From NCBI GenBank assembly GCA_965204725.1, contig OZ242005.1, forward strand, positions 3,584,001 to 3,648,000: a DNA stretch of 64,000 nucleotides. The letters are read 5' to 3'. Within the stretch, counting starts at the first letter, position 1; every line of letters begins with the position of its first letter. The position numbers were made by a program, and so were the translations under genes. The notes beneath the pieces were generated by a model. The model saw only the letters and a program-made list of their open reading frames with translations, had not been told where the DNA came from and did not search any database. Below are positions 1,159-16,252 of the stretch, in pieces. The DNA comes from Candidatus Latescibacterota bacterium (GTDB lineage Bacteria; Latescibacterota; UBA2968; UBA8231).

Positions 1159-4100
1159 CTAGAAGTCGAATTGCAAACCAAAGCGTATCTGCCGCGGTGA
1201 GTCGTAGATGTCGCCGCCTTCGGTGGACCAGTAGTGCTGGCGGTTGAGCAAGTTGACGGCCTCGTAGAGCTGCTGGTACTGCAAGCCGCCGCTGGCCTCG
1301 ACGATCTGCTGGCTCAGATCCGGGTTCGTCAAAAAGCCGTCGTCCTTGTCGTTGCCGGTCCGGCCGTACACGTTAATTACGTTCTGGCGGTTGAACAGGT
1401 TTTGCACGTACGCGTAAATCTGGGCATTGACCCCATAGAGCGAAAAGCCCTTGTCGATCCGCAAGCCGACCTCAAAGGTCCAAGGCGTCGCCGAGCGGTT
1501 GATGGACTCAACGGGCTTGCGCGAGCGCGGGTCGTCGCTGGCGAGGATGCCGCCTTCTTCCGGCCCGCGCTGGCCGATTGAGCCATCTACGAGCGTGAAG
1601 TTGTAGCCGCTGGCAAACCGCGCCAGCAGGTTGGCCCCCAAGCTGCGGAGGAACGGGTTCGCTTCGTTGTCGGCAAAGCGGTAGTCCAAAAGCAGGGAGC
1701 CGCGGTGCGTCTGGTTGAAGTCGAGCGGGGAGATGATCGTCGGCACGTCCGTGTCGTTCTCCACGCCCGACTGCGCCGATGTCAGGGTCGAACCGGTGCC
1801 GCGCGCGTCGGACAGGGTGTAGTTCAACTCGGCCCGCACGCGGTTGATCCGCCGCACCTTGAACTGGAACTCAATGCCCTTGGTCGTGGCAAAATCGCCG
1901 TTCTGCAAGTACGTGAACGAGCCGGCCTCCCTTGCGTCGGCCGACACCTCTTGCCGCCGGATTTGGATCTGGCCCTTGACGTCGCGGTAGAAACTCGTCA
2001 CGTCAAACGAGGCAAAATCCGCGAACTGACGCTCAAAGCCGATCTCGTATTGGGTCGTGCGTACCGGCTCAACGTCAAAGGCTGTGGGCGTGAGGATGAA
2101 GTTTTGTCCCCCCAACTCTAGGGCCAGCCGCGCCCCGCCGGTGAACATCTCGCGCATGCGCGGCATCTGGGAGAAGCGCCCGTACTGCACGTGAAAGACC
2201 GTCAGGTCCGACACCGGGAACGAAAAGCCCAAGCGCGGGCTGACCTCCGTATAGGCCGCTGTCTTCTCCATGTAGGTGCCGGCCGAGTCTGCGATCACCA
2301 GAGTGCGCTCCTTTTCGTCAACCACCGGCGCCGCTTGATCGACAAAGCGCCAACTCGCCGCATCAAAGTAATCCAAGCGCAACCCGGCGTTGATGATCAG
2401 ATCATTGTATTCAATTTTGTCTTGGACGTAGGCCGAGCCGACCACGGGCTTGCGCGGGTCTTGCAGCGGGTCGGCCGACGAGTCAATGGAGCGGCCAAAC
2501 TCGTCGTAGCCAAAGAAGTCGCCCGAGCTGCGGCGTAGAAACCGCTTGAGGTCATCGAGGCTCCCCTCGCCTTCGGGCAGGCCCTCGGCGGTTTTGATGA
2601 GCTCGTCGAGGATCGCGCCCTCGGCGAGCTCGCCGCTGTAGTACCGCTGGTACACTTCGTCTAGCTCGGGGTAGGTCGCGGCGATGCCTGAGCGAATGGA
2701 CCCGTTGAAAATGCTGTGGCGGCGCGACGTCCACATCTGGTAGTCAAAGCCGGCCTTGAGCTGATGGACCGCGGTCTGCTTGGTAATGCTGCCGGCCAAG
2801 CCCCAATAGCGGTCCTGTTCCTTGCCGTACCAAGCGCCCGTGCTGTTGCCCGACCCAGAATTGGTAGGCGAACCCGGGCGGTTGAACGGAAACCCGCTCA
2901 GGTCATACGGCTCGGGAATCGACCCGTTGGCCGTATAGGGGGTGTACTCCGGGCCGCCTTCCAAGGCCCGCTGGACGGCCACGCTGTCGTTGTACACCCA
3001 CCAACGCTCTTTGAACAACCCGTCAAAACTCTCTCGTCCCTGATTGTAGAAACTGACGTTCATTTCGTAGAACAGGCTCGGGTCGAGCAAGTGGATGGCC
3101 TTTAGGTTGACCAAGCTCGACGAGAGCGTCTGCTCGTTGAGGCGTTCTTGGTTGAGGATGTTTTTGATGGGGTTGATATTGAGGTCGCGTTGCCCGGCCG
3201 AGTGCAGGCCCGTGACCCGGAACAGGATGGGGTTGTAGTTGAAGTGCAGGGTGCCGTTGAAGTCGGTGATATAGCTGCCGGTGTGCGGGATATTGCCCGG
3301 CTTGACCTCCAGCCGCTCGACCACGTCTGGGATGGGATTGCCTTCCTCGTCTTTGGCCCAATGCACGCGCCCTTGGCGATTGCCCGTATCCACCAGATTC
3401 TCGAATTCAAACCCCGACCAGAAGGTCGGTCGATACTCCCGGTACCACCGCTGACCGGCGAGAAAGGCGCGGATGTTTTGGTTGCCCGCGACCGGGCCGC
3501 CGGCCGTGATCACTTGGCTGGAATAGCCATAAGAGTACGTGCCAAAGCGCTCCTCAAAGTCGGAAGTGAAATTGTCCGACTCGGCAATGACCCTGAAGTC
3601 CCAATCGCGGCCTCCGGTGCGCAGCTCCTGCAAGACGATGCCGGCGTTGGCCCCGCCGTACTCGGCGTTGAAGCCGCCGGCCTGTAGCTGAATTTCTTCT
3701 AGGGCTTCGTCGATCAGGCCCACAGCGCTGCCGCCGGTGATTATGTTGCGGACGCTGGCCCCATCGACGTAGTAGCCAATTTCGTCGGAGCGCGAGCCGC
3801 GGATGTGCAACGCCCCCTCGTCTTCAACCACGCCGGCCTGCAAAGCCAAGACTTGGCCGACGCCTCGGAACGGCAGAATTTCTAGGTCCTCGGCCCCGAC
3901 AATCCGCACCGCATTGGTGGCGTTTTTGTCGATGATCGGCCGCTCGGCCCGGATGACCACTTCCTCGACTTGGATATCCGCAGAAGTCAGGTCAATGTCG
4001 AGGTTCGTAGTCAGGTCGGCCGAGACTCGCACATCCTCCACTGTATAGTCTGCGTAGCCGATGTACGTGGCCTTGAGTGTGTAGGTGCCCGCCGGCACGT

Positions 4101-4314
4101 TGAGAATAAAGAAGCGGCCCTTTTCATCGGCCGTGGTCCCCAGCTTGGTCCCGACCACTGCGACATTGGCTTGGGGCAGCCCATCCCCGGTGGTGGCATC
4201 CTTGACGACACCGGCTATTTTGCCGCCCGTACTAGCCCCGGCCGGCGCCAAGCTCAGCGCGAGCAGGACGCCCAGTGCGGTCACAACGCGAATAACGCCT
4301 GCGAATTTGGTCAT
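1159..4314 (-). CDS. TonB-dependent receptor with N-terminal carboxypeptidase-regulatory-like domain
   Basis: Signal peptide; GKIAGVVKDATTGDGLPQANV...GTTADEKGRFFILNVPAGTY domain; plug motif LHIRGSRSDEIGYYVDG and GGFNAEYG; barrel motifs NAGLRLDY and SPRLGFSFP; C-terminus RQIRFGLQFDF; SD AAGGAGGAG. Confidence 0.92.
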   Translation of the reverse strand: MTKFAGVIRVVTALGVLLALSLAPAGASTGGKIAGVVKDATTGDGLPQANVAVVGTKLGTTADEKGRFFILNVPAGTYTLKATYIGYADYTVEDVRVSADLTTNLDIDLTSADIQVEEVVIRAERPIIDKNATNAVRIVGAEDLEILPFRGVGQVLALQAGVVEDEGALHIRGSRSDEIGYYVDGASVRNIITGGSAVGLIDEALEEIQLQAGGFNAEYGGANAGIVLQELRTGGRDWDFRVIAESDNFTSDFEERFGTYSYGYSSQVITAGGPVAGNQNIRAFLAGQRWYREYRPTFWSGFEFENLVDTGNRQGRVHWAKDEEGNPIPDVVERLEVKPGNIPHTGSYITDFNGTLHFNYNPILFRVTGLHSAGQRDLNINPIKNILNQERLNEQTLSSSLVNLKAIHLLDPSLFYEMNVSFYNQGRESFDGLFKERWWVYNDSVAVQRALEGGPEYTPYTANGSIPEPYDLSGFPFNRPGSPTNSGSGNSTGAWYGKEQDRYWGLAGSITKQTAVHQLKAGFDYQMWTSRRHSIFNGSIRSGIAATYPELDEVYQRYYSGELAEGAILDELIKTAEGLPEGEGSLDDLKRFLRRSSGDFFGYDEFGRSIDSSADPLQDPRKPVVGSAYVQDKIEYNDLIINAGLRLDYFDAASWRFVDQAAPVVDEKERTLVIADSAGTYMEKTAAYTEVSPRLGFSFPVSDLTVFHVQYGRFSQMPRMREMFTGGARLALELGGQNFILTPTAFDVEPVRTTQYEIGFERQFADFASFDVTSFYRDVKGQIQIRRQEVSADAREAGSFTYLQNGDFATTKGIEFQFKVRRINRVRAELNYTLSDARGTGSTLTSAQSGVENDTDVPTIISPLDFNQTHRGSLLLDYRFADNEANPFLRSLGANLLARFASGYNFTLVDGSIGQRGPEEGGILASDDPRSRKPVESINRSATPWTFEVGLRIDKGFSLYGVNAQIYAYVQNLFNRQNVINVYGRTGNDKDDGFLTNPDLSQQIVEASGGLQYQQLYEAVNLLNRQHYWSTEGGDIYDSPRQIRFGLQFDF

Positions 4315-4345
4315 ATCTCCCTCCTTATGGAGTAGTTCGATACCC

Positions 4346-5059
4346 CTACATCAGATGCAGCCAATCCTCTAAAAGAAAGGTCACGCGCCCGATCAACAGC
4401 GAGACCCTCGCCATAATGGTGTACCCAAACGAAGCACCAAACGAGACCATCAAAAACCATATCCCCACCTTGGAGACATGGCCCGCCGCGCTGGTGTGCT
4501 CAACCGAAAAGAAAAAGTAAACCAACACCCCGACGACCCCGACTAGGACGATCAGCAGGTTGAGCCCTTCTACGCTCCAAGTGAGCGGCTGTAATGTAGG
4601 CTCAATTTGGGCGAGAATAAAGGAAGAAATATAGCGGGGAATCGTCCATCCGGCCCCGAGCCCTACGAAAAACGCAAACGCATAGCGGCTGAGCCAACCG
4701 AAGCGCAACGAAAAGCGCGTCAACATCAAAAGCCCGAGCACGGTCGGGGCCAACAGCCACCAGTTGGGCGTCTCCCCTTCCCCCGGATCGGTCCATTCGG
4801 CGATGAGCTCGCCGTAGATCGTCGGATACCAGTACTGGCCGAATACATAGGCCGCGGCCACGCCGACGAAGACGTGCTCGGCAAACTTGAAGAGCGGGTT
4901 GTCCTTGTAGAGGAAGCTATACAGCGCCAAGGTCATGCCAGCGGCGACTATGACGCCGAAACCGGTCCAGTCGGCCGCCAAGATCCCGCTGGCCACCAAG
5001 GCGATGTTGACGGCCGCAAACAGCAACACAAAACCCAACAAGACATACGTATCGCGCAT
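4346..5059 (-). CDS. Polytopic membrane protein of the GlmL/DUF6754 cluster
   Basis: About 7-8 hydrophobic segments; motifs YSFLYKDNPLFKFAEHVFVG, LVYFFFS and MVSFGASFGYTIMARVSLLIGR; 3-bp gap to the upstream gene. Confidence 0.8.
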   Translation of the reverse strand: MRDTYVLLGFVLLFAAVNIALVASGILAADWTGFGVIVAAGMTLALYSFLYKDNPLFKFAEHVFVGVAAAYVFGQYWYPTIYGELIAEWTDPGEGETPNWWLLAPTVLGLLMLTRFSLRFGWLSRYAFAFFVGLGAGWTIPRYISSFILAQIEPTLQPLTWSVEGLNLLIVLVGVVGVLVYFFFSVEHTSAAGHVSKVGIWFLMVSFGASFGYTIMARVSLLIGRVTFLLEDWLHLM

Positions 5060-5062
5060 GGC

Positions 5063-5881
5063 TCAGCACTCCTGCGGAGATCGGCCCCGCCGGGCGGCGA
5101 AGTACGCGATGTTGCCAAAAATCACGAAGGCGACAATGACCAGATGGGTCACCGACTGGGGCGACATGCTCTTGTTGGCCGCATCGCGGTGGTCGATCAG
5201 GACCTCGTATTCGGCGGCACCGGCCAAGCCGCCGAGCAGGCCCACGAGCTGGCCCGATCCGAGGAATGGGTAGAGATCCGGGGCCATTACTGCGGTGCAG
5301 CCGGCCGCAAAGGGGAAGCCGTACTTCTCCTGCCCGAAGGGGATCCACCAAAACTCAATCGAATCCCCGGCCCCTAAGTCAAAGACGAAGTCGAAATCGC
5401 GCAGCGAGCGCAAACCCCGCATCAGCTCCAAGTCGCCGACGCTTGTGCCCCAGTTGTCCTGCGGAAACGCGCCGGGTACGTCGTGCCCCATGTTGAGTAT
5501 GACGCTAGAGGTCCCGGGCTTATAGCCCAGAAAGGCGTACTCCACGCCGTAGGTCAAATCGAATTCGGCCGCCATCTCCTCGAGCACCGCTTGGGCTAGC
5601 CCGGTCGCTTCGGGCCACAGGCAGATGGCGACTACCTTGAGCTGGCGGCTAAATGCGTGGCGCAAAATCGCCCGCGCCATGGGCTGCATCTCCGGGGCCG
5701 TGCTGGCGCCGTAGGAGAAGGAGACTAATACGACCTGCCCGGCGGCGAGCTGTTCAAATTGGTCGTACGCCGCTCGTACTTGCTTGCTCGGCGTAATCGG
5801 CAGGTGCAGCCCGATCAAGAGCGGCCCGACCACGCCCAAAAACACCAAGGCGAAGAGAATGCGGCGGTCAATTTGGATCAT
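5063..5881 (-). CDS. Membrane-anchored alpha/beta-domain protein (N- and C-terminal TM helices), GlmL/DUF6754 cluster
   Basis: N-terminal TM, soluble domain (..YGVEYAFLGYKPG..GQLVGLLGGLAGAAEYE), C-terminal TM; ATGA overlap with the upstream gene. Confidence 0.8.
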   Translation of the reverse strand: MIQIDRRILFALVFLGVVGPLLIGLHLPITPSKQVRAAYDQFEQLAAGQVVLVSFSYGASTAPEMQPMARAILRHAFSRQLKVVAICLWPEATGLAQAVLEEMAAEFDLTYGVEYAFLGYKPGTSSVILNMGHDVPGAFPQDNWGTSVGDLELMRGLRSLRDFDFVFDLGAGDSIEFWWIPFGQEKYGFPFAAGCTAVMAPDLYPFLGSGQLVGLLGGLAGAAEYEVLIDHRDAANKSMSPQSVTHLVIVAFVIFGNIAYFAARRGRSPQEC

Positions 5882-6537
5882 TCGTCGCCTCCACCGCCCA
5901 AATACGAACGCTCAATGCCGAAAATGATTCGCAGCGAGGTCGCGATGGCCCCGAGCGACACCCCGAGCAGAATGCCGCGCTTGGCCGCTAAGTTCGGCAC
6001 ACTCATGAGCCAGTCGGTCGCCAGCGGAAAAAACTCCGAGATTTCTCGGCCAATGGGCACTCGGCCCAGCATGACGATCACCGCGGCGATCAGCAACAGC
6101 GCGGCCTCGGGCGTGCGGGCGCGAAAGGTCCGGTAGGCCGCCGAAGCGATGAAAAAGGCCAAGATCGAAAACATGGTGCCCGAACAAGGCAGGTGGACGT
6201 ACTGAAAGAGCCAGTTGTAGCCCCCGGCTTCGGCTTGGGCGACAAAGGGACCGCGGCCATCGTTGTACACGACGAAGAACATCATCAGCGCAAAGCTGGC
6301 GATGGCAACCAAGCTGTAGCCCCAACCGACGACGTGCTGGCGGATCCGCTGCCAATGCAGGTTGAGCAGGCTGTACAGGCCGAGCAGGTAGGCAAACGCG
6401 GAGATGATCCGCACCCACTTTGCCATTTCGCGCTCAAATCCTTGGGCATGGCTGTGCGGTATGTAGTAGATGGCAATGCCCAGCAGGCCAAAGACTAAGG
6501 CGATAGCCAGCGGCACGGTGCGGCTAAAAAACAGCAT
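5878..6537 (-). CDS. Polytopic membrane protein of the GlmL/DUF6754 cluster
   Basis: About 6 TM segments; motifs TMFSILAFFIASAAYRTFRAR and AAKRGILLGVSLG..LRIIFGIER; SD GAGGAGG. Confidence 0.8.
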   Translation of the reverse strand: MLFFSRTVPLAIALVFGLLGIAIYYIPHSHAQGFEREMAKWVRIISAFAYLLGLYSLLNLHWQRIRQHVVGWGYSLVAIASFALMMFFVVYNDGRGPFVAQAEAGGYNWLFQYVHLPCSGTMFSILAFFIASAAYRTFRARTPEAALLLIAAVIVMLGRVPIGREISEFFPLATDWLMSVPNLAAKRGILLGVSLGAIATSLRIIFGIERSYLGGGGDE

Positions 6538-6546
6538 GGCCCCTCC

Positions 6547-7794
6547 TCAATAGGGAGTAAAGAAGTAGGTTAGCTGGGGGAACAGCCCGGCCGTTGCCAA
6601 GAGCGTACCCAACGCCAAGACGGCCAAAATAAGGGCCTTGCCGGCGTCTTGGCCCTTGAGAGTGCCCAGCATCCGCGGCTCACCGGATAGATAGGCACTG
6701 GCGGCGTAGAGCTCTTCGCCGAGCAGTGTATAGTCGCAGGTAGTAATGAAGAACGGCAACTGGGTGAAGGCGTCGGTGCCGGCGATCTGGATCGCCCCAG
6801 TAGTAGAACCTGTCTCGGCCAACAGCAGGGACTCGGCGTAGAAATATCCCATCATAATGTGGGCGGCTGGCCGGTCGCGGAGCATGAGGCCCTCGACAGC
6901 GGCTGCATAGCTAAACTGCTCGGCCCCGGCGATGAAGACGTGATCGGGGTTGAAGGCATCGGGCCGCCCCGCCTCGATGTACGAGGCTTTCACCGTCTCC
7001 TGACTCACGGACATGACCACTGGATCGGGCGCGACCACCCGCAGCGCGGTGTCGTATTCGGCCGTGCGCCGCGCGACCCGCCCCAAGATGTTGACCGCGG
7101 CAATGGTCGAAATCTGGCTCATGTCGCGCAGGCCGTGGATGAAAAGCACCGGCTTGCCCATCTCGGTCGCCCGCCCCAACGCTTCGTCAAGGGCTTCTAG
7201 CCCGGCAATGCGGCGAATTTTGAGTTCGCGGCGACGCGCAATGCCAATGTAGCCCATGATAAGCCCTGAAAACAGGAGGCATAACACCAGATTATTGGCC
7301 TTGGCGCGATTGAAGAAATTGCCGGCCGACTCGGCTTGGACGATCACTTTGCCGCGGATCGCGCCCCCGGCCGACCGCACATCCACGTGAAAGTAGTACG
7401 TCTTGCCGTCTTCCAACGGGGTCTTTCCGCCCGCGCCCGCAAATTCTTCGACGTTGACGTAATGGCGATTCGCTAGCTCGTCCCCGTGCCCAAAGAGCGC
7501 CGGGGCCTCGGCCATCAAATTCTCCGTGGCCGCGACCTCGGCCGCGACGCGAAAAGGCCCGTTGGGCGAGTCGGCGATAGCTACCTGATAAATCGCGTTT
7601 TCACTGATTTGACGGTCCCGCGGCCAAGTCAGGGTAATACTGCCCCCGTCGTCGTTGGGGGTGTCAAAGGCTTGGACCTCAATCGGCGGCTTAGGGTGGG
7701 CCAGCAGTGTGCCCAGCCCTTGTTCTGCATTTTCCGCCGCGCTCGCCAACGGCCAAGCCAAGACGAGTGTAGATAGCCAGCTTTTTGCGCTCAT
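6547..7794 (-). CDS. DUF6754-like protein with N-terminal FN3-like extracytoplasmic domain
   Basis: Signal peptide; DTPNDDGGSITLTW...LEDGKTYYF FN3-like module; TM; then IRRIAGLEALDEALGRATEMGKPV...GYFYAESLLLAETG..GAIQIAGT..QLPFFITTCDYTLLGEELYAASAYL; C-terminal TM. Start moved to ATG 7794. Confidence 0.75.
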   Translation of the reverse strand: MSAKSWLSTLVLAWPLASAAENAEQGLGTLLAHPKPPIEVQAFDTPNDDGGSITLTWPRDRQISENAIYQVAIADSPNGPFRVAAEVAATENLMAEAPALFGHGDELANRHYVNVEEFAGAGGKTPLEDGKTYYFHVDVRSAGGAIRGKVIVQAESAGNFFNRAKANNLVLCLLFSGLIMGYIGIARRRELKIRRIAGLEALDEALGRATEMGKPVLFIHGLRDMSQISTIAAVNILGRVARRTAEYDTALRVVAPDPVVMSVSQETVKASYIEAGRPDAFNPDHVFIAGAEQFSYAAAVEGLMLRDRPAAHIMMGYFYAESLLLAETGSTTGAIQIAGTDAFTQLPFFITTCDYTLLGEELYAASAYLSGEPRMLGTLKGQDAGKALILAVLALGTLLATAGLFPQLTYFFTPY

Positions 7795-7798
7795 GCCT

Positions 7799-8914
7799 TT
7801 ATCCTTCAATCAACTCCACATTCGCCCGCGGGACTACGGCCTGCTCTCCGCCTTCAAACTCGACAGCCAACACCCGCACCCGCGCCCCGGACTCTACCTC
7901 GCACAACTCGGTCGGCAAGTCTCTGACGCGCCCAACCCGCCCAAAATAGGGCATCCGAATCACGCGCAACAAATCGCCCACCTGCAACCCGGTCTCGCCC
8001 GGCCGCCCCTCTTCTTCCCCTGTGTCAGCGGCTGCGGGGATGATGATTTCCGGCCGCAACACGCCGGCGCGAATCTGAGTCGCGCCGGCCATAGACGCAT
8101 CCATGCCAGCACACGCTTGTAGAATGTCAAAGGGCTTGCGGGCCATGGCGACGCGGCCAAAGCCCTCGGTCGCTACCACGGTCAGGCCGATTTGCTCGGT
8201 CCCGGTGATGGCCACGCCCAAGTCGCGCCCGAGCAGGTCTCGTAGGTCGCGGTCGCGCAGGCCGCCGCCAATCAACCCCACGGCCCCGGCCTGCCGGGCC
8301 TGTTCTACGGTCTCCGCGCTAATCAGGCTGCCGACCACTGCGATCTTGCCCGCCACTTCGGGACCCAGCGGCCCGACGAGGGCGTCCGGGGCATCAACCG
8401 CCAAGTGCAGCGCACCCCAGCACTCACCCCCCACGCCGAAAATGCCTTGGATATACGCACCGCACGCTGCGACGCGCACTCCCTCCGCGGCAAAGACCTC
8501 CTCTACGACCCCATCGACGTACGCCAGCACTTCAACCGGCTTAGGTGCTTGGCGCAAAATCACCTGCCCCGTAACCGGCGAAATGCTTTCGACCGTGCCG
8601 CGGACCGGGGATTCAATGGTGGTCTTGAACCACCGAATAAACGGCTTGGTCGCGGCGAGCGGCTCGCCGGCTTCGACTCGGTCGCCTTCTTTTTTGAGCA
8701 TGTAGCCGGATAGTTCGCGCGGCGCGATGCCCAAGCGGTTGACCAAGTTGAGAGTCGCCACCTCGCCCGGCAGTTCGGTGCGCGCCACGACTTGGTCGCG
8801 GCGCACCGCTTGGCCGCGCTCGACGACCACTTCGCCTTTGAGGGGCAACCGCCGCTCTTTGTGGACGACTGCGCGTTGCGTCACGCGCAGCCCAGGGGTA
8901 TAAGCGTGGGCCAT
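7799..8914 (-). CDS. Conserved soluble protein with barrel-sandwich-hybrid-like repeats and a C-terminal KOW-like motif
   Basis: RRLPLKGEVVVERGQAV, LKKEGDRVEAGEPLA..IESPVRGTVESISPVTGQV (hybrid-motif-like), GIFGVGGE, and LQVGDLLRVIRMPYFGRVGRV..VPRANVELI (KOW-like). Confidence 0.75.
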   Translation of the reverse strand: MAHAYTPGLRVTQRAVVHKERRLPLKGEVVVERGQAVRRDQVVARTELPGEVATLNLVNRLGIAPRELSGYMLKKEGDRVEAGEPLAATKPFIRWFKTTIESPVRGTVESISPVTGQVILRQAPKPVEVLAYVDGVVEEVFAAEGVRVAACGAYIQGIFGVGGECWGALHLAVDAPDALVGPLGPEVAGKIAVVGSLISAETVEQARQAGAVGLIGGGLRDRDLRDLLGRDLGVAITGTEQIGLTVVATEGFGRVAMARKPFDILQACAGMDASMAGATQIRAGVLRPEIIIPAAADTGEEEGRPGETGLQVGDLLRVIRMPYFGRVGRVRDLPTELCEVESGARVRVLAVEFEGGEQAVVPRANVELIEG

Positions 8915-8917
8915 GAG

Positions 8918-10699
8918 TTACTCGTATAGGTTTAACGCCCGCTGCCAGTCGCTTATCTGACGCCGGCGGTCGCGGTCAGTCGCCATGTCTATGGGTCGCC
9001 CGCGACCATCGAGCACGAGCCCTACGGCCCCACCGCGCACCCGCGCATTGAGCGCGTGGCCCGGGCCGGCACCCACATCCCACCGCCGCGCCGGCTGGAG
9101 TGCGATTTCGACCTCCTCGCCGTCGGCCAAGGGCAGCCACTGTAGCTCGCCGACCTCCAACTGGCCGGTTCGCCGCCCGCTGGGCAGGTCTAGTTCGTAT
9201 TGGAGGCACACCTCGCCGCCCTTGCCCGCGCCGACCGGGGCCACACACGTACCCAAGTAGATCAGGCAATCGCGCTCAAAAACCTCGGTGGCAGCCCGCT
9301 CGTCAACGGTCGAGAGCACCCCCAAGTGAGGCATCATAAAGATGCTATCGACCGCCAAGCGGGTGACGCCTTCGGGCTGGAAGGCATCTATGAGCATGGC
9401 GCAACTCTGCGCTCGGCGGGGCGCGTGCGAGAGTACGCCGCCGCTGCCGACTAGCATGTCCAGCGTCATCATCTCGACTAAACTCTCGCCGGTGGCACCC
9501 TGCTCAAAGACATCGGCCAGCGTGCGCTTGCTCTGCACCCCCTTTAATCCCACCGCCAACGCCCGGTGCTGGTCAAAGGCCAAGCGCAGGGCCTCGCGGG
9601 CAATGGCTTGCTCGACTTGCAGTTCCTGCATGAGCTGCGGGATGGTCGTCGGGCGGATCATCTTGTTTTTGATCCGGTCGCGGAGGTCGGCCTCCTCAAT
9701 GTCAAAGGGAACCCAGCGCATGATCTGGTCGAGGCCAGCCTCGGCCAGCACGTTGGCGACGCTATAGGACATGCCGAGGTTGGCGCTGACCGTGCGGTTG
9801 AACACGCCATCGAAAACGCTGAACACATCGGTCGTCGCTCCGCCAATATCTACGCCGACGACGTTGATTTCCTGCTGACGGGCAATGGTCTGCATGATCT
9901 GGCCTACGGCCCCGGGCGTGGGCATAATCGGCGCGCTGGTCCAGCCCATCAGCTTGCGGTAGCCCGGGGCCTGCGCCATGACGTGGTCGAGGAAGAGGTC
10001 GTGAATGACGTGCCGCGCCGGGTCCAGATTTTCCCTTTCGAGCACGGGGCGGATGTTCTCGGTAACGGTCAGGGCCATCTTGCCCCCTAGTGCTTTTTCG
10101 ACCTCCTCGCGTGCGTCTTTGTTACCCGCAAAAATAACCGGCAGCTTAAAGCCCGCGCCAAAGCGGGGCTTGGGGTCGGCCGCGCTGATGAATTCGGCCA
10201 ATTCGACCACGTGGCTGACCGTACCGCCATCCGTGCCGCCCGACAGCAGCACCATGTCGGGGCGCAACTGGCGGATGCGTTCTATTTTTTCGTGCGGCAA
10301 GCGCCCGTCGTTGGCCGCGAGCGCGTCCATGACGATGGCCCCGGCGCCCAAGGCGCAGCGCTGCGCGCTCTCGCCGGTCATCGCCAGCACCACGCCGGCC
10401 ACCACCATCTGCAACCCGCCGCCCGCACTGCTCGTCGAGATGTACATATCGGCCCCGACATCGCCAGCGGCTGGGGCAATAATCCGCTCGCCATCGAGAA
10501 TTTGCCGCCCGGACAGTTCCTCGACCTCTTGAATGGCGTTGAGCACCCCCCGGGTGACGTCCTCAAAGGGGGCCTCAACCGTGGTGGGGGCCTCGCCGCG
10601 AAAGGTCTGGCGATACCCCTCGTCCTTCTTTTCGATGAGGATCGCCTTCGTCGTCGTACTGCCGCAGTCCGTGGCGATAACTACGTTGAGGTCATCCAT
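8918..10699 (-). CDS. Glutamate mutase L (GlmL/MutL)-like actin-fold ASKHA ATPase with a C-terminal extension
   Basis: Phosphate-1 DCGSTTTK, SSAGGGL, LLSGGTDGG, phosphate-2 DIGGATTDVFS, RTVSANLGM, adenosine motif GSGGVL, C-terminal GLVLDGRGRP. Start set at ATG 10699, overlapping the upstream stop. Confidence 0.85.
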   Translation of the reverse strand: MDDLNVVIATDCGSTTTKAILIEKKDEGYRQTFRGEAPTTVEAPFEDVTRGVLNAIQEVEELSGRQILDGERIIAPAAGDVGADMYISTSSAGGGLQMVVAGVVLAMTGESAQRCALGAGAIVMDALAANDGRLPHEKIERIRQLRPDMVLLSGGTDGGTVSHVVELAEFISAADPKPRFGAGFKLPVIFAGNKDAREEVEKALGGKMALTVTENIRPVLERENLDPARHVIHDLFLDHVMAQAPGYRKLMGWTSAPIMPTPGAVGQIMQTIARQQEINVVGVDIGGATTDVFSVFDGVFNRTVSANLGMSYSVANVLAEAGLDQIMRWVPFDIEEADLRDRIKNKMIRPTTIPQLMQELQVEQAIAREALRLAFDQHRALAVGLKGVQSKRTLADVFEQGATGESLVEMMTLDMLVGSGGVLSHAPRRAQSCAMLIDAFQPEGVTRLAVDSIFMMPHLGVLSTVDERAATEVFERDCLIYLGTCVAPVGAGKGGEVCLQYELDLPSGRRTGQLEVGELQWLPLADGEEVEIALQPARRWDVGAGPGHALNARVRGGAVGLVLDGRGRPIDMATDRDRRRQISDWQRALNLYE

Positions 10700-11027
10700 G
10701 CTTTTGGCTTTCGCGCTGGGCAATGGCCTCTGCGAGCAAGTCTATGCACTGGCGGCGCTCCAACATGCGCGTAAAGCGCTGGTACTCGGTGCGCGAAAAA
10801 ACCAGCGTGGCAAACGGGGCCAAAAAGGCCAAGGCTTGGCTCCCCAAAAAGTTGAGCGGGCGACAGGCCTCCAGCGCCATGGCCGCAGCCGCTCCCATGC
10901 GGCGACTCACTATAAACTCGGCCAGCCGCTCGACGAGGGCGCGCTCGTCTTCAGACCAACCCGCCGCGGGGTCTTCGAGGGCAAAGGCGTGCCGCCACTG
11001 CGCTTTTAAGTTATTGAATCGGAACAT
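10692..11027 (-). CDS. Small conserved hypothetical protein (amphipathic or membrane-associated)
   Basis: ERLAEFIVSRRMG..ALEACRPLNFLGSQAL.FLAPF..YQRFTRMLERR; overlaps both neighbours. Confidence 0.65.
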   Translation of the reverse strand: MFRFNNLKAQWRHAFALEDPAAGWSEDERALVERLAEFIVSRRMGAAAAMALEACRPLNFLGSQALAFLAPFATLVFSRTEYQRFTRMLERRQCIDLLAEAIAQRESQKHG

Positions 11028-11427
11028 GGCACCGGACGAAACGCGCAACTTCTTCGCGGTTTTGATCGAAGCGCAAAAAAACGCCGCGAAAGGAATCGAG
11101 CCGACCCGGGCGGGCGGATGGACGCAAAAAAATGCCGTCTCGCTGTTCGTCAGCCCGGCGGAACTCCACCCAAAAACGGCGTTGTTTGAGGCCGAGGTGT
11201 TCGCTACGGATCCCTTCGCTGTTGAGTACGTAGCGCGTGGGAAAGAAATAGCGCGACAGCGAGGCGGTCAATGCTCCGAGTGAAAATAGTCCGTAAAACC
11301 AATGCTCAAAACCAACGGCCGCTGCCGCTGAGGAAGCGACGATCAGCGCGACCAACAGCATTGACTTGGCCGGCTTCTCTCGGCGCAGGGGGAGGCTCTC
11401 CCAGCGGAGGGTGTCTGCACAGGACAC
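11011..11427 (-). CDS. Small membrane protein (2 TM plus a small beta domain)
   Basis: LRWESLPLRREKP, two hydrophobic helices, then FFPTRYVLNSEGI..RLDSFRGVFLRF; sits 6 bp after the SBP gene. Confidence 0.65.
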   Translation of the reverse strand: MSCADTLRWESLPLRREKPAKSMLLVALIVASSAAAAVGFEHWFYGLFSLGALTASLSRYFFPTRYVLNSEGIRSEHLGLKQRRFWVEFRRADEQRDGIFLRPSARPGRLDSFRGVFLRFDQNREEVARFVRCHVPIQ

Positions 11428-11433
11428 GAGCTG

Positions 11434-13269
11434 CTAGTACATCTGCTCTTCCTGCGCGACCCACCAGTCTTGCAAGCGGACGCCGGGGGGATACCAAGTG
11501 ATGCCGCTGAAGCGGCGGCTGTAGGCTTGGGGCGAGCGCGGCTTCCACATGAAGGTGTATGGCTGTTCCTCGTGCAGGATTTCTTGAAAGCGGCGGTAGA
11601 GCGCGATGCGCTTGTCCGCGTCGAACTCGCGGCGATAGGACTCCAAGATGTGGTCCACTTCGTCGTTGATAAAGACTACGTGGTTGGAGCCGTTCTCTAC
11701 GGCTTGGGAGGAATGCCAGATCTGGTAGCCATCGGGCGCAAAGCGCAAACTGCCGGTCCAAGCCAGCACCGTGGCGTCGAAGTTTTTGCGCCTGATCCTT
11801 TGCAGAAAGATCGACCAGTCCAATTCGCGCACTCGGCAGTCAATGCCGATGTCTTGCAGCTCGTATTGGACCGTTAGGGCGATGTCTTTGCGGATCTGGT
11901 TGCCCGAATTGACCAAGATCTCAAAGCGAAACGGCACCAACTCCTCATCGATGACCTTGTCGAGGATGCCGTCCTCGTCGGCGTCTGCCCAGCCCGCCTC
12001 CGCGAGCAGGTCGAGGGCGCGGTCGGGGTCGTAGGGGTACGGCGCGAGGTCGTGGTTGTATTCGGGGCGGAATTTGTGAATCGGCCCCTCTACCGCCTCG
12101 GCCAAGCCGAACATGATGTTCTCCACCATGCCCTCGCGGTCCGTCAAATAGGTCATGGCTTGGCGCACCCGCTTATCGCCGAAAATCGGGTGGTTGTTGT
12201 TCCACCCGATGTACACATAGCCGCTGGAGTAGCTAACCCCTTTGAGGAAGCGGCGGTTAAAGTCGTCGGACCAGCTCTTTTCCCTGAATTCCAGCGGGCG
12301 CAAGCTGTGGTAATCGAGGTGGCCGTTGGTCAACTCAATGAACGCCGCGTCGGTGTTGTTGATGATCTTAAAAACCACCTTATCGACAAACCCGGGCGGC
12401 AGCAGCCCTTCGACATCCCGGCCCCAGTAGTTTGCATTCCGCGTCAGCACGACTTTCTGCTGAGTGACCAAATCGCGCTCTGGGTCTTCAATCCGGTACG
12501 GCCCCGACCCGAGGGCCTGGCGATTGAAGTTTTGGTTGAACTGCTCGGCAAAGCGCTGGACCCGGTCCTTGTGAGGCCCCGCCTCCCAAGAGCCATCCAC
12601 CAAGCTGGTGAGCTCGACCGGGTCCATCAGCCCCTCCGGGTCGTAGAAGTGTTTGGGCAGGATGGAAAAGCCGCCCAAGATCAAGTCGTTGCGGAAATAC
12701 GGCTCGCGGCAAAGGAAGCGAATTTTGTTGGTCTCTACGATCTGCACGTCGCGGACGGTGGCGTAGTAGTTGCGCAGGTGCGGAGCGAGTACTTGGGGAT
12801 TGTGGATGACCTTCATGCTGAAGACGACGTCCGCGGCCGTCAGCGGCTTGCCGTCTGAGAAGTAAACCCCATCGCGCAACTCAAACGTGTACGCGAGTTT
12901 GTCCGCGGAAACCTTCGGGTACTCTTTGGCGATCTGACCCCGCAGGTTGTACGGCGGATCGTGCTCGGCGTCGAGCAGGCCCTCAAAGATATGCTCCAGC
13001 ACCCTACTGGTGCCGGCATCGCTGGAGGTGTACGGGTTGAGTCTTTCGGGGTCGGACAGCAGATGGCGCACCATCCAGTCGCCGTGGGTGGGCTCGTCTT
13101 CCCCCTCGTAGCGCAGGGGTGCCTTCTCAGTGCCGTCGAGTACGACAATATCCTTGGTACTCATGAGGATTTTCTGCACCACCTCCCACGCCCCTTCCTC
13201 AGCGGCGGCATGGCCGACGACGCAAAGGGCCAACCAAGCGGCCACTACGGACATTCTACACTTAGGCAT
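11434..13269 (-). CDS. Peptide/oligopeptide-binding protein (ABC solute-binding family 5)
   Basis: Signal peptide; DPERLNPYTS, YTFELRDGVYFSDGKPLTAADVVFS, LGSGPY, RVRQAM, YDPDRALDLLAEAGWADADEDGILDK. Start ATG 13269 has SD AAGGAG. Confidence 0.9.
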   Translation of the reverse strand: MPKCRMSVVAAWLALCVVGHAAAEEGAWEVVQKILMSTKDIVVLDGTEKAPLRYEGEDEPTHGDWMVRHLLSDPERLNPYTSSDAGTSRVLEHIFEGLLDAEHDPPYNLRGQIAKEYPKVSADKLAYTFELRDGVYFSDGKPLTAADVVFSMKVIHNPQVLAPHLRNYYATVRDVQIVETNKIRFLCREPYFRNDLILGGFSILPKHFYDPEGLMDPVELTSLVDGSWEAGPHKDRVQRFAEQFNQNFNRQALGSGPYRIEDPERDLVTQQKVVLTRNANYWGRDVEGLLPPGFVDKVVFKIINNTDAAFIELTNGHLDYHSLRPLEFREKSWSDDFNRRFLKGVSYSSGYVYIGWNNNHPIFGDKRVRQAMTYLTDREGMVENIMFGLAEAVEGPIHKFRPEYNHDLAPYPYDPDRALDLLAEAGWADADEDGILDKVIDEELVPFRFEILVNSGNQIRKDIALTVQYELQDIGIDCRVRELDWSIFLQRIRRKNFDATVLAWTGSLRFAPDGYQIWHSSQAVENGSNHVVFINDEVDHILESYRREFDADKRIALYRRFQEILHEEQPYTFMWKPRSPQAYSRRFSGITWYPPGVRLQDWWVAQEEQMY

Positions 13270-13279
13270 ATTCTCTCCT

Positions 13280-14200
13280 TCACACAAACGTCAACCATCC
13301 GTGCCGATCCTCAACTTCGACGCGAACCACGGCGAAAAAGCCCTTTTGGATCTGCGCGGTGATCGGCCCGCACTTGCCGCAGCCGATCGGCACTTGGTCT
13401 ATGGCGCGGATCGGCGTGATTTCGGCCGCCGTACCCGTGAAAAATACCTCGTCGGCGATGTAGAGGAACTCGCGCGGAATTCCGCGTTGCTCGACCCGCA
13501 TCCCCAGATCGCGGATCAGGGTAATGGCGGTGTGGCGGGTGACCCCCGGCAGGATGGCAAAATTAGACGCGGGGGTATAGATCGAGCCGTTTTTGATCAC
13601 AAAGAGGTTCTCGCCGCTGCCCTCGCTGACCAATCCATCCGTTCCCAAGACAATGCCCTCGTCGTAGCCGTTCATATTGGCTTCAATCCGCACGAGCTGG
13701 GAGTTGAGGTAGTTGCCGCCGGCCTTGGCCAAGGCCGGAAACGTATTCGGTGCCATGCGATTCCACGACGAGGTGCAGACCGAAACGCCGTTTTTGAGCG
13801 CGGCCTCGCCGAGGTACTCTCCCCACTCCCAAACGGCGATTACTACGTCAACCGGGCACTCCATCGGATCAACTCCGAGGTTGTCGTAGCCGCGGAAGAC
13901 GACCGGGCGGATGTAGCAAGCCGCGAGTTGATTGACGCGGATCGTCTCGAGGATGGCCTCGCTGATTTCCGCTGGCGTATAGGGAATTTCCATGCGGTAG
14001 ATCTTGGCGGAGTCAAACAGCCTGTTGACGTGCTCGTCGAGGCGGAATACGGCCGAGCCTTTCGCCGTCTTATAACAGCGAATGCCTTCAAAGACGCTCG
14101 ATCCGTAGTGTACTACATGGGAGAGCACGTGGATCTTGGCGTCATCCCAATCGACCAATTGGCCATTGAACCAAATTTTATCGCATTTGGGTAGGGGCAT
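13280..14200 (-). CDS. ilvE: Branched-chain amino acid aminotransferase
   Basis: [40 protein letters not shown] (PLP lysine), [30 protein letters not shown]; start ATG 14200 with SD AAGGAG. Confidence 0.95.
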
Positions 14201-14281
14201 GCAGAACATCTCCTTGGGCAAGTATGCGAGTAATTAAGGTAACACCACTGCGAAATCGTTACCAGTGTTAAGGTTAAGCTA

Positions 14282-16252
14282 CTACAGCGAGCGCGTATAG
14301 GTCACCGCAAAGCTGTCGAACGTGCCGCTGCGCTGGTGATTGCGGCTGCCTCGTACGGTGAGCTTGTTGTCGCTGCCGACCGGGTTGTAGTTGAGGTTCG
14401 CCGATAGGGTCCGATGCCTATTGCGGCGGTTGAGGGAGCGCGGCTGGGCGAGCGCAGCGTAGTCGTAATCCCACTGGCGGGCCAGCTTGTAGGTGTAGCT
14501 CGCGCCGGCCGAGTAGTCGGCACTGGGCGAGTAGGTCATGCCGAAGCGGAGGGAGTAGCGGGCGTTTTCCTCTTCGACAATCTGGGCCCCGTTTTCCAAG
14601 ATCAAGGCGCCGTCATCGTCGGCCGAGTACTCGTAGCGGGCGTTGACCGAGAGGTCGTCGTCAATTTTGCGCCGGAGCGCGTGTGACATGCTCCAGCCGC
14701 GGCGGATTTTGCTTTTGCGCGACGACTCGCGGCTGTTGACTTGGCGGTCGAAATCAAAAATAGTGCGCTTGGCGGACACGCTGAACCGATGCGAAAAGGA
14801 CGCCCCCAAGCGCTCGTAATTGGTGCCGATATTGAGCGAGAGGTCGCGGTTGCGCGAGTTGTTCCCGGCGCGGGTGGCGTGCAGGTTCACGCGGTGCAAA
14901 AAGCTGTTTTTGAGATCGACGCGCAGCTTGGCCCCCGAGCGCAGCGTGCCGTTGTAGCTGAGGGTAATGCTGTTGTTAAAGGTGTCGCGGTCCTGATCGG
15001 GCCTCCCCGGGTTTTCCGAGCGTTTGATGTCGCCAAAGGTCGTCAGCCGCAGCGAGTGTGCATCGGATAGGGGCCAGTTAAGCGAGCCGTTGAGAAAGAG
15101 GTTGCGGTCGCTCAGGTCAGAGGTTGGGTCGCGGCACGTTCCGTCCGCCGAGCGCGTGAAGTGGCTGTCGCAGCGGCTGGTATCGAGCACCCGCACCGCC
15201 AGCCGGCGCACGTCGCTGCCCTTGAAGCGCACGTTGGCGGTGAAGATCAGCTTCTCGATTAGCTTGCCCGAAAGGGAGGCGTCCCAGCTAAAGTTCTCGC
15301 TGAGGCGGTCCTTGCCGAAGAAGCGGTTGTTTAAGTCTTGGGCCGCGTTGGCAGTGTTGGTGTGCTCGTTCTGGCTATAAGAGGCGCGGTTTTTGATCTT
15401 GAATCGCCCTAGATCGAACTCCACGTTGGAGGATAGGCTGGTGCCGCGCGTTTCTGATAGCTCGGCGCTGACTACCGTATCGCGCACCGCGGTTTCCCCT
15501 ACTATGTCCTCGCTGATGATGCGGCGCGGGAGGCCGCGCTGCGAGCGATTCTCAGACATGCTCAGACCAACGCGGATGTCGCCGGGGAAGGTATAGCTCA
15601 CGTTGCCGCTCAGTCGGTCGCTGCGATTCTTGTTGTGCTCGAGCGTATCGTCCGTTTTGCTCAGCGAAATCGAGTTGCTCAGTTTTTTGCCGGCAATCTC
15701 GACATCGGGCGAGACCCTCAGCGAAGCATTGTAGCGGATCCCGGTTTCCTTGATGGTGCTGTCGAGGTTGGCGCGGGTAGCGCGGGTGGCCGTGATTAGG
15801 CTCGGGGTTAGGTTCGCACTCAGGCTCTTGAACGGGCCGCTGCTCAATGGCTTGGACCTAAATCCAAAGTTAAAAGACTGGCTGCGCGTCTTCTGCTTTT
15901 GGAGCGTTACGTTGCGCGTACTCATGGTGGCGCCGAGGCTGATGGTGGCCTTTGGACCGAGAATGGGATAGTTGATCGAAGTTCGGCCCGAGGCATTGTC
16001 CTGCCAACTCTTGCCGCCGCTACGATCGTCGAGGGTAAACCCCATGTTCGCCGAGGCGGTAATCGTCAGCTTGGAAGTCGAGTCCCCCACCGCTGAAAAA
16101 CGCACGGGCGTCGAATAGTTCCAGCTAGGCAATCGGTGGTTCCAAGAGGTTCGGCTGCTGGAGCGGCTGAAGTTGAGCGAGTATTGCTGGGCATCGGCCA
16201 CCGCCCAGGCAGCCAAGACGAGCCAACCCACGTGCCACAAGACCGGCTTCAC
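14282..16252 (-). CDS. Putative large outer-membrane beta-barrel protein of unknown function
   Basis: GTG start overlapping the rsmA stop gives a signal peptide (MKPVLWHVGWLVLAAWAVADA). The rest is S/T/N/R-rich with alternating hydrophobic strand pattern throughout and ends FDSFAVTYTRSL. Confidence 0.6.
   Translation of the reverse strand: MKPVLWHVGWLVLAAWAVADAQQYSLNFSRSSSRTSWNHRLPSWNYSTPVRFSAVGDSTSKLTITASANMGFTLDDRSGGKSWQDNASGRTSINYPILGPKATISLGATMSTRNVTLQKQKTRSQSFNFGFRSKPLSSGPFKSLSANLTPSLITATRATRANLDSTIKETGIRYNASLRVSPDVEIAGKKLSNSISLSKTDDTLEHNKNRSDRLSGNVSYTFPGDIRVGLSMSENRSQRGLPRRIISEDIVGETAVRDTVVSAELSETRGTSLSSNVEFDLGRFKIKNRASYSQNEHTNTANAAQDLNNRFFGKDRLSENFSWDASLSGKLIEKLIFTANVRFKGSDVRRLAVRVLDTSRCDSHFTRSADGTCRDPTSDLSDRNLFLNGSLNWPLSDAHSLRLTTFGDIKRSENPGRPDQDRDTFNNSITLSYNGTLRSGAKLRVDLKNSFLHRVNLHATRAGNNSRNRDLSLNIGTNYERLGASFSHRFSVSAKRTIFDFDRQVNSRESSRKSKIRRGWSMSHALRRKIDDDLSVNARYEYSADDDGALILENGAQIVEEENARYSLRFGMTYSPSADYSAGASYTYKLARQWDYDYAALAQPRSLNRRNRHRTLSANLNYNPVGSDNKLTVRGSRNHQRSGTFDSFAVTYTRSL

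Follow-up and report, generated by a model that had tools for sequence, protein, structure and literature searches.

Actin-fold proteins of bacteria can be docked on bitopic membrane proteins, as in the PilM-PilN-PilO assembly, where PilN gives PilM its docking motif, and as is the case for GspL and FtsA. In the diol-dehydratase reactivase, an actin-fold ATPase is combined with a swivelling domain. A shared energising module serving exchangeable membrane parts is found in importers of the energy-coupling factor (ECF) type, and mechanotransmission is the task of the ATP-binding cassette (ABC) systems MacB, FtsEX and LolCDE. A further actin-fold protein, GlmL, is presented in a figure legend of PMC4682846 as a chaperone for glutamate mutase reactivation. 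The present analysis deals with a relative of GlmL that is encoded together with membrane proteins. It belongs to a cluster of eight genes, g1 to g8, located at positions 4346-11427 on the minus strand of a 64,000-nucleotide stretch from a Candidatus Latescibacterota bacterium (assembly GCA_965204725.1, contig OZ242005.1, positions 3,584,001 to 3,648,000), the whole of which is called the window below. The host genome measures 5.43 Mb in two contigs and is 94% complete. The analysis establishes that the cluster is a conserved functional unit of two modules, that g3 and g4 are physically coupled and that the system is independent of B12 mutases.

The seven conserved genes form a widespread system without a described function, encountered at no fewer than 581 loci in species-level genomes. 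Its carriers run global nitrogen and carbon turnover and lack genetic tools; they comprise Nitrospira, anammox bacteria, Methylomirabilis, marine Marinimicrobia-type and Latescibacterota lineages, nitrite oxidisers being included. A full-text literature search returned no paper on DUF6754 or PF13941, the families of g5 and g3 respectively, a description under another name or in supplements being possible. Likewise, no described system was found that joins a MutL-type actin-fold ATPase with membrane proteins, the gene names of single genome papers lying outside that search. Four of the seven conserved proteins (g2, g6, g7 and g8) have no family of any kind, and none of the seven has a solved relative by sequence.

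Gene order, conservation and modular build

The eight open reading frames (ORFs) share one orientation and either overlap or lie at most 9 nt apart, as an earlier interpretation made from the letters alone (the sequence-only reading) had stated and as the ORF coordinates bear out. From upstream to downstream, they encode a 138-residue small membrane protein (g1, 11011-11427); a 118-residue protein that opens the conserved soluble module (g2, 10692-11048); a 601-residue actin-fold ATPase of the acetate and sugar kinase/Hsc70/actin (ASKHA) type, which belongs to a long subfamily of the Pfam MutL family (g3, 8918-10723); a soluble three-domain protein of 371 residues (g4, 7799-8914); a DUF6754 protein of 420 residues that opens the membrane module and whose relatives are called at 415 residues (g5, 6547-7809); and three family-less proteins, namely the polytopic g6 (219 residues, 5878-6537), g7 (272 residues, 5063-5881), which carries a transmembrane helix at either end, and the polytopic g8 (237 residues, 4346-5059), the last gene of the conserved unit. 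In terms of the longest ORFs, g1 and g2 overlap by 38 nt, g2 and g3 by 32, g4 and g5 by 11, and g6 and g7 by 4; gaps of 3, 9 and 3 nt separate g3 from g4, g5 from g6 and g7 from g8. Promoter-like and terminator-like sites at the locus were no commoner than in shuffled sequences. Six sequencing runs from four studies contain the window stretch, and no RNA run is among them.

In order to assess how far this arrangement is kept, one genome per species was scanned with a DUF6754 pattern. At least 598 stretches matched, at least 581 were confirmed and the best 80 loci were retained, on all the ORFs of which iterated profiles of the eight window proteins were then mapped. The labels of these 80 loci span Latescibacterota, Gemmatimonadota, Brocadiaceae, Scalindua, Anammoxibacter, Phycisphaerae, Planctomycetaceae, Nitrospirota, Methylomirabilis, Ignavibacteria, WOR-3, Zixibacteria, Stahlbacteria, Edwardsbacteria, Sumerlaeota and one Myxococcales bin. 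The order g2-g3-g4-g5-g6-g7-g8 recurs in Latescibacterota, Nitrospirota, Planctomycetota (including the anammox lineages), Methylomirabilis, Ignavibacteria and others. By a strict positional test, g5 is followed by g6, g7 and g8 in 68 of the 75 copies with at least 3 kb downstream; for the other 7 copies the gene is present, its start having been over-extended by the ORF call. Across the loci mapped, g6 always comes after g5, g7 after g6 and g8 after g7. Of the 61 loci that offer at least 4 kb on the upstream side, 42 have g3 and g4 immediately before the first g5. Relatives of g2 occur in 52/80 loci, directly upstream of g3. Those of g1 were detected with the iterated profile in 19/80, always upstream of g2. 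The conserved unit is thus composed of seven genes (g2-g8) plus an optional g1: the eight-gene unit first proposed stands for seven of its members, the eighth being restricted to certain lineages.

The association was further examined within the phylum of the window, where DUF6754 was found in 143 and MutL in 153 of the 168 genomes surveyed. Of the 118 genomes in which a single contig holds both markers, 117 have MutL on the strand of DUF6754 and no more than 12 kb upstream of it; the two domain matches are mostly some 2 kb apart. Roughly two dozen genomes of the phylum either miss both markers or show a weak MutL match only, and one whole family of 13 is among them. Among 121 Nitrospirota genomes, the same 19 carry both markers, adjacent on one strand, and the remaining 102 carry neither. 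The genes therefore do co-occur in other genomes across phyla, the point that the sequence-only reading had put forward as a check, and the recurrence of their order is more than chance.

The one multi-gene complex envisaged earlier is nevertheless built from two separable parts. The system consists of a soluble module, g2-g4, and a membrane module, g5-g8, which are able to sit apart in the genome. Loci without an adjacent g2-g4 set are mainly those of WOR-3, Zixibacteria, Edwardsbacteria, Stahlbacteria and unclassified bins. When five such genomes were searched, a long-form MutL was present elsewhere in four of them (frames of 595-625 residues), with g4 as a neighbour in L116 and L117 and g2 in L117 and L119. 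In a Sumerlaeota genome (L107), g1-g2 directly precede g5-g8 and the MutL gene is on another contig. The modules can also differ in number. An Ignavibacteria locus (L075) combines just one g1-g4 set with three g5-g8 modules behind it, triple membrane modules are also present in L096 and L102 (a Zixibacteria and a WOR-3 genome), and more than one g5 occurs in 8/80 loci altogether (L075, L081, L094, L096, L100, L102, L103 and L105). Taken together with the variable outer part of g5 described below, the tandem arrangement of membrane modules next to one g2-g4 set suggests that these modules are interchangeable and confer specificity, and that they share one energising module. The paralogous g5 copies of tandem modules were themselves observed to differ in their outer domains.

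Proteins of the two modules

The ATPase g3 matches MutL (PF13941) with 425.6 bits (E 3e-127, gathering score 27) over residues 15-486 of 601, the profile being covered from 1 to 450 of 450. The C-terminal domain beyond it, already noticed from the sequence, amounts to about 115 residues and is beta-rich. The ASKHA motifs reported as intact (DCGSTTTK, DIGGATTD and GSGG) are readable in g3, and D19, G21, T23, K26, D292, G294-D299 and G428-G429 are invariant in 18/18 aligned sequences. Identity reaches 62-80% among the g3 proteins of Latescibacterota, Nitrospirota, Planctomycetota, WOR-3, Ignavibacteria and Methylomirabilis. A quick maximum-likelihood tree was built, the root of which is arbitrary. 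Its clades track phylum labels, with Nitrospirota and Methylomirabilis as sisters, one Latescibacterota/Gemmatimonadota-labelled group, other Fibrobacteres-Chlorobi-Bacteroidetes (FCB)-type bins separate, Phycisphaerae/Planctomycetaceae separate as well and the anammox lineages near the base; true GlmL sits on a very long branch outside the tight group of cluster-type proteins. Provisionally, g3 is considered to be old and mainly vertically inherited under strong purifying selection, not recently spread.

The description of g3 as an orphan relative of GlmL was upheld. The protein falls below all three NCBIfam cut-offs of GlmL type, namely GlmL NF040745 (234.3 bits against 475), the ornithine-pathway relative Or-4 (213.4 against 600) and the GlmL family TIGR01319 (162.5 against 204.05, with 166.3 and 165.4 bits for cluster-type proteins from two other phyla). 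On the GlmL model, the cluster-type MutL proteins of WOR-3 and Nitrospira score 223.2 and 233.6 bits, against 568.5 bits for a true GlmL of the window's phylum (L114), the gene of which lies directly after the S subunit of methylaspartate mutase. This true GlmL is 33% identical to g3, shares its nucleotide-binding motifs and has no C-terminal domain. In some genomes of the phylum a second MutL gene scores 500-533 bits and encodes about 470-530 residues; in two of them it adjoins a GlmE match. True GlmL and the cluster-type g3 are therefore separate paralogues. The window genome itself contains no GlmE match and no match to the C domain of methylaspartate ammonia-lyase; its single B12-binding domain lies about 0.94 Mb from the window, in a 251-residue corrinoid protein whose gene adjoins that of a URO-D-type methyltransferase. 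In the phylum, GlmE was found in 3 of the 168 genomes, against 143 for DUF6754, and the ATPase accordingly does not track a B12 mutase.

Two observations on the loci just mentioned can be added. The corrinoid locus (L002, G000:C1:2640259-2643588) carries B12-binding_2 and B12-binding domains next to the URO-D-family methyltransferase, which suggests a methylotrophic-type methyl-transfer system in this Latescibacterota genome and not a carbon-skeleton mutase. In L114 (G056:C1:3446000-3463000, at 7435-11377), glmS (149 residues) and true glmL (470 residues) are followed by a 619-residue ORF without Pfam or NCBIfam match. No GlmE match was obtained genome-wide; either this subunit has diverged or escaped detection, or the ORF was wrongly called.

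The soluble protein g4 was modelled from a 25-sequence alignment with a predicted local distance difference test (pLDDT) score of 85.9. A hybrid barrel (about residues 49-123), a swivelling beta/beta/alpha domain (about 131-297) and a KOW/SH3-like domain (about 309-371) are apparent. The hybrid and KOW domains had been recognised in the sequence-only reading, with which model and fold search agree; the swivelling domain between them had been overlooked. Weak Pfam matches were recorded to Biotin_lipoyl (26 bits, residues 73-118), RnfC_N (22.3, cut-off 25.6), NQRA_N (18.1, cut-off 25) and PA. A whole-protein match to NqrA can be dismissed, the NCBIfam model giving 12.4 bits against 450 and only the hybrid domain of about 65 residues being superposable. 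With VIA-align, the swivelling domain retrieved enzyme I of the phosphotransferase system (PTS) (2wqd, Z 9.1, root-mean-square deviation (rmsd) 3.0, 109 residues aligned), rifampin phosphotransferase (5hv1, Z 8.6) and RraA (3c8o, Z 8.5); the hybrid domain retrieved NqrA (4u9o, Z 7.8; 8a1u, Z 7.3) and RnfC (8ahx, Z 7.4) at 23-25% identity; and the KOW/SH3-like domain gave Z values of about 7-8.9, with 8.5 for the KOW domain of NusG, all of these values being only moderately above the background of the tool, so that they name folds and not functions. A g4 profile run against PDB sequences returned RraA as best match (E 0.033). Foldseek yielded KOW and other single-domain matches only, and the protein atlas returned nothing apart from g4's own unnamed family.

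Across phyla g4 remains about 50% identical. Its first nine residues, MAHAYTPGL, are nearly invariant and of low confidence in the model, a combination typical of a docking peptide. None of the histidines or lysines of g4 is invariant in the 25 sequences, the only near-invariant histidine being H3; no invariant or near-invariant histidine lies at 131-297 and no such lysine at 73-118. This argues against two roles that the folds had brought to mind. A phosphohistidine relay would agree with the swivelling fold, and the conserved histidine is absent; a biotinyl or lipoyl carrier would need a modifiable lysine at the hairpin tip, which is not conserved.

The coupling of g3 and g4 is documented by natural fusions. 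Among the relatives of g4 longer than 650 residues, 38 of 40 are g3-g4 fusions of about 990-1005 residues (three being shorter fragments), in which a complete g3 including its C-terminal domain is followed by 15-30 residues and then by a complete g4. Some of them are recorded as 'glutamate mutase L' from Neomarinimicrobiota and Planctomycetota bins. A metagenome scan with one fusion identified 11 contigs from different assemblies on which the fused gene has g2 on one side and g5-g8 on the other; in a marine lineage, the operon therefore does exist in this fused form. As the two genes are joined throughout a lineage, g3 and g4 work as one unit. A distant relative, P0310 (876 residues), combines a MutL core (451 bits with the g3 profile) with two weak partial g4 matches, 30% identical to the g4 of the window, and may be a second, more divergent fused form. 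The search for longer relatives of g2 found none.

On its other side, g4 is tied to g5. It keeps its place next to g5 where inserted opp genes part the cluster behind g3 (L115 and, judging by spacing, L042 and L045), and the two genes overlap by 11 nt in the window. Because g4 forms one protein with g3 in one lineage and is linked to g5 by gene position in others, it is proposed as the bridge between the ATPase and the membrane module. A complex prediction of g4 with residues 165-420 of g5, run with custom alignments, returned 'no answer' (score 0.00 against a mark of 0.32) and weighs neither way. Candidate g4-g5 fusions were rejected: 800-residue frames extending over DUF6754 proved to be alternative-frame overlaps. 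P0271 (707 residues), a single member from a 221-kb Nitrospira-like contig, runs on from an entire g4 through the signal helix and FN3 domain of g5 and terminates within DUF6754; it is probably an assembly or gene-calling artefact, and were it real it would represent a g4-g5 fusion. On four metagenome contigs (L164, L167, L169 and L171), g4 and g5 are neighbours, g3 is absent from the 7 kb upstream and g6-g8 cannot be recognised downstream. The L169 pair is surrounded by genes for an MBOAT acyltransferase, a thioredoxin-like protein, a carbonic anhydrase and a Mrp/Nuo-type antiporter-like subunit.

The two proteins encoded at the upstream end are small. Hydropathy analysis of g2 gave no clear transmembrane segment, its middle part being alanine-rich and moderately hydrophobic. 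For the optional g1, one clear and one weaker hydrophobic segment precede a soluble tail of about 70 residues, and the sole Pfam hit, to Salyut, is at chance level (E 0.094; 13.3 bits, cut-off 27), with no credible match in NCBIfam either.

In the membrane module, g5 was correctly described beforehand as a DUF6754-like protein with an extracytoplasmic FN3-like domain. It matches PF20539 with 371.6 bits (gathering score 27) over residues 163-409. Its model (pLDDT 87) displays a signal-like helix, an FN3-like domain (about 45-160), a transmembrane helix (about 168-193), a Rossmann-like domain (about 204-375) and a second transmembrane helix (about 378-407). The FN3-like domain is supported by fold matches at Z 10.5-10.8, and the first transmembrane helix is followed by a strongly positive stretch. 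The Rossmann-like domain of about 170 residues obtained generic matches only, at Z 9.5-10.5 (phosphoglycerate kinase, transhydrogenase dIII, Sir2 and RCK), and its comparison with the protein atlas gave no usable match. The top Foldseek hit of g5, the LNS2 domain of Nir2 (E 6e-6), was discarded in view of its TM scores of 0.2-0.3, an rmsd of about 25 and its absence from the VIA lists. The family has 33 invariant columns, most of them in the cytoplasmic domain. It comprises 2222 clusters at 50% identity, with relatives of 320-1276 residues in which the N-terminal outer part may be nearly absent or may reach about 1000 residues; Pfam matched nothing in the N-terminal extensions of ten long members.

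The proteins g6, g7 and g8 show a mean column identity of 34-42%. Hydropathy indicates about 5-6 segments in g6, 2 in g7 and at least 4 in g8, to be compared with 2 plus the N-terminal signal-like helix in g5. Between its terminal helices, g7 contains an alpha/beta-looking domain of about 215 residues, which is probably periplasmic according to the positive-inside rule, the positive charges being found outside both helices. No Pfam or NCBIfam match above chance level was obtained for g2, g6, g7 or g8, and a Pfam scan of 32 g6, 30 g7 and 31 g8 relatives revealed no common family, with isolated weak hits of single members only. PDB sequence searches with g3-g8, conducted by family profile for g6-g8, returned nothing significant. 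A remote homology of g5 and g6 was abandoned: the initial hhalign probability of 98% came from alignments with over-extended ORFs and dropped to 0.1% after cleaning. The other five pairs of membrane proteins reached at most 2.1%, the four proteins of the module thus being not detectably related. The statement that the system is neither of ABC nor of tripartite ATP-independent periplasmic (TRAP) type agrees with the domain searches: g1-g8 have no Pfam or NCBIfam match to ABC_tran or an ABC-type permease and none to DctQ/DctM-type domains, and the binding protein encoded next to the cluster is of family 5 and not of the DctP type.

Proposed function and rival explanations

Our preferred reading, which we hold to be slightly better than evenly balanced, is that the cluster encodes one ATP-dependent inner-membrane machine of two modules. 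In this scheme, g3 would bind and hydrolyse ATP, and g4, attached to it and possessing a mobile swivelling domain, would contact the membrane module from the cytoplasmic side, its most likely docking site being the strongly conserved Rossmann-like domain of g5. The nucleotide-driven motion would cross the membrane by way of the helices and reach the periplasmic parts, namely the FN3-like domain of g5 and the domain of g7, with the effect of moving a substrate or of performing mechanical work on something in the envelope. The scheme is favoured because of the strict operon architecture, the bridging position of g4, the one-to-many relation of soluble to membrane modules and the size and variability of the outer domains. 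Were an actin-fold ATPase to power such a machine, this would represent a new energising principle at the bacterial inner membrane and would correct the automatic name 'glutamate mutase L' in public records. The sequence-only reading had already cast the ATPase as the cytoplasmic motor of an inner-membrane transporter or transducer: its fusion to g4 upholds g3 as part of one working unit, and the motor role, the membrane contact and the transport are inferred from gene order. A further-reaching proposal, which we regard as possible and on the whole doubtful, is that of a new class of primary ATP-driven transporters or force transducers, neither ABC, P-type nor rotary. Such a class would pair an actin-fold ATPase with a swivelling partner and exchangeable four-protein membrane modules, the variable periplasmic domains of which would set specificity; it would be ancient and mostly vertically inherited in key nitrogen-cycle bacteria.

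Several observations speak against such a machine. The putative contact between the modules is read from gene arrangement, and the ATPase activity of g3 from its motifs. The proteins of the membrane module resemble no known transporter, channel or pump by Pfam and PDB sequence search, and the matches of the cytoplasmic domain of g5 are those of a generic Rossmann fold. In 14 of 61 loci, g2-g4 are not found within about 4 kb upstream of g5, and in the fifth of the five genomes searched for an unlinked ATPase (a 1.4 Mb assembly of which the completeness is not established) no MutL was found; the membrane module might work alone. Four genomes of the phylum with DUF6754 gave no MutL match and two with a strong MutL gave no DUF6754, all six being 57-90% complete. 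Kin genomes are not independent, so that the co-occurrence counts overstate the number of independent observations, although the pattern repeats in separate phyla. Finally, no neighbour family recurs across phyla among the 80 loci to name a substrate.

The chief rival, to which we attribute a rather low but appreciable probability, holds that g5-g8 form a membrane enzyme or cofactor complex and that g3-g4 attend to it as an ATP-dependent chaperone, by which a cofactor or subunit is loaded, exchanged or repaired, and do not act as a motor for every working cycle. The fact that g3 shares its Pfam family with the proposed reactivating chaperone of glutamate mutase speaks for it, and g4 would supply the swivelling domain that recalls the diol-dehydratase reactivase; no DdrA/EutA-type chain is present among the 50 fold matches listed for g4, no search having been aimed at them. 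One g2-g4 set for several g5-g8 modules fits a shared helper, as does the ability of the soluble module to be encoded far from the membrane module, and a nucleotide-type cofactor could be accommodated by the Rossmann-like fold in g5. On the other hand, no cofactor-binding motif or enzyme family is recognised in g5-g8, and the very high identity of g3 together with the usually strict adjacency and overlap of the genes is more typical of stoichiometric subunits, while still being compatible with a helper. An enzyme complex with a dedicated chaperone would give context to four unannotated protein families. It is less likely again that g3 is a nucleotide-dependent platform of the PilM/GspL/FtsA kind, possibly polymerising, which organises the bitopic g5 and g7 into an envelope or surface structure. 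Such a platform would agree with an actin fold having intact nucleotide motifs, with the anchoring of g5 and g7 by terminal helices, with their large outer domains and with the FN3-like, length-variable outer part of g5 (relatives of 320-1276 residues), as is often seen in adhesive or structural surface parts; by analogy, MAHAYTPGL could be a docking motif of the PilN-to-PilM kind. However, the neighbourhoods of the cluster in different phyla have no pilus, secretin, division or cell-wall gene in common, and g3 is nearest to the MutL and hydantoinase-type branches, its sole cytoskeleton-type Pfam hit being MreB-like_C at E 0.047. Either of the two explanations, and the machine that we prefer, can be addressed experimentally, the natural g3-g4 fusion and the compact operon making the system directly testable.

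Two more rivals arise from the name of g3 and from the immediate neighbours of the cluster. An ordinary GlmL serving a B12-dependent mutase elsewhere, with incidental membrane neighbours, would account for the Pfam MutL match and for the public name of the fused relatives. It is already contradicted and is given next to no weight: g3 scores under the three GlmL-type cut-offs, the genome has neither GlmE nor methylaspartate ammonia-lyase and carries its lone B12-binding domain in a corrinoid methyltransferase protein, GlmE is rare in a phylum where the cluster marker is the rule, true GlmL, where a genome has it, is a distinct paralogue encoded next to GlmS or GlmE, and the order with the membrane genes is kept across phyla. 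As to the neighbours, which are regarded as context and not as core, a 617-residue family-5 (peptide-type) solute-binding protein (11434-13287, minus strand; SBP_bac_5, 256 bits) is encoded so that its gene ends 6 nt upstream of g1, and the gene of a 1051-residue TonB-dependent-receptor-like outer-membrane protein (1159-4314, minus strand; CarboxypepD_reg and Plug) starts 31 nt downstream of g8. The machine, the binding protein and the outer-membrane receptor could therefore constitute, in Latescibacterota, a peptide uptake system, either a new importer or an accessory of the Opp ABC transporter. The two neighbour families do recur in related loci: the binding protein is found in 8, all Latescibacterota/Gemmatimonadota-labelled, and the receptor in 7, of which 6 are so labelled and 1 is unclassified. 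Opp genes are nested in and after the cluster of L115 (G056:C1:1160000-1178000, about 2889-17062), which reads g1, g2, g3, SBP_bac_5, OppB, OppC, g4-g8, OppD and OppF, and about 25 of the 118 phylum genomes have a MutL-DUF6754 spacing of 5.9-9.4 kb that matches such an insert. This explanation is nonetheless judged quite improbable, if less so than an ordinary GlmL: the linkage is limited to one phylum, Nitrospirota, Planctomycetota, WOR-3 and others having different neighbours; the set nested in L115 is a complete ABC importer needing no partner; and the window genome possesses 11 family-5 binding-protein genes and four Opp-type ATPase pairs elsewhere, lone binding-protein genes being common there.

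Other neighbours were recorded in passing. In 25 Nitrospirota loci, g8 is succeeded in the same orientation by a Memo-like gene (PF01875; for example at 13386-14696 in L058 and 13542-14777 in L071). Genes for AsmA/YhdP-like proteins, PlsY and lipoate ligase are each near a few loci, the first two recurring in Nitrospirota. In the window, a protein of 696 residues rich in Ser, Thr, Asn and Arg (14282-16372, minus strand) has an N-terminal hydrophobic segment and no Pfam match; its gene has a conserved place ahead of the cluster in five close relatives, and the product could reside in the outer membrane.

Relation to described systems

The closest described relative is GlmL/MutL, with which g3 has in common the Pfam family, the actin-fold core and the same invariant nucleotide-binding motifs. 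It differs in that g3 is never beside glmS or glmE and occurs in genomes without GlmE, and in that it is partnered, at times fused, with g4 and encoded together with four membrane proteins. The middle domain of g4 has the swivelling fold of PTS enzyme I, of phosphoenolpyruvate (PEP)-utilising enzymes and of RraA; unlike the PEP-utilising enzymes, g4 has no invariant histidine and no PEP-utilising or ATP-grasp partner domain. Its hybrid domain recalls NqrA and RnfC, as does the encoding of a soluble protein with membrane subunits, whereas the flavin, the Fe-S and the NADH-binding parts are absent and g5-g8 are unrelated to Nqr or Rnf subunits.

With PilM, GspL and FtsA, the cluster shares an actin-fold cytoplasmic protein encoded together with membrane proteins that carry periplasmic domains, but g3 is located in the MutL branch and is accompanied by no pilus, secretion or division genes. 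The likeness to ECF importers and to mechanotransmission systems is one of logic only: one soluble ATPase module is combined with one to three membrane modules and variable outer domains and, as in MacB, FtsEX and LolCDE, large periplasmic domains are borne by few transmembrane helices. The difference lies in the energising protein, since g3 is built on an actin fold and not on that of ABC proteins, and the cluster gave no hit to an ABC, ECF or FtsX domain.

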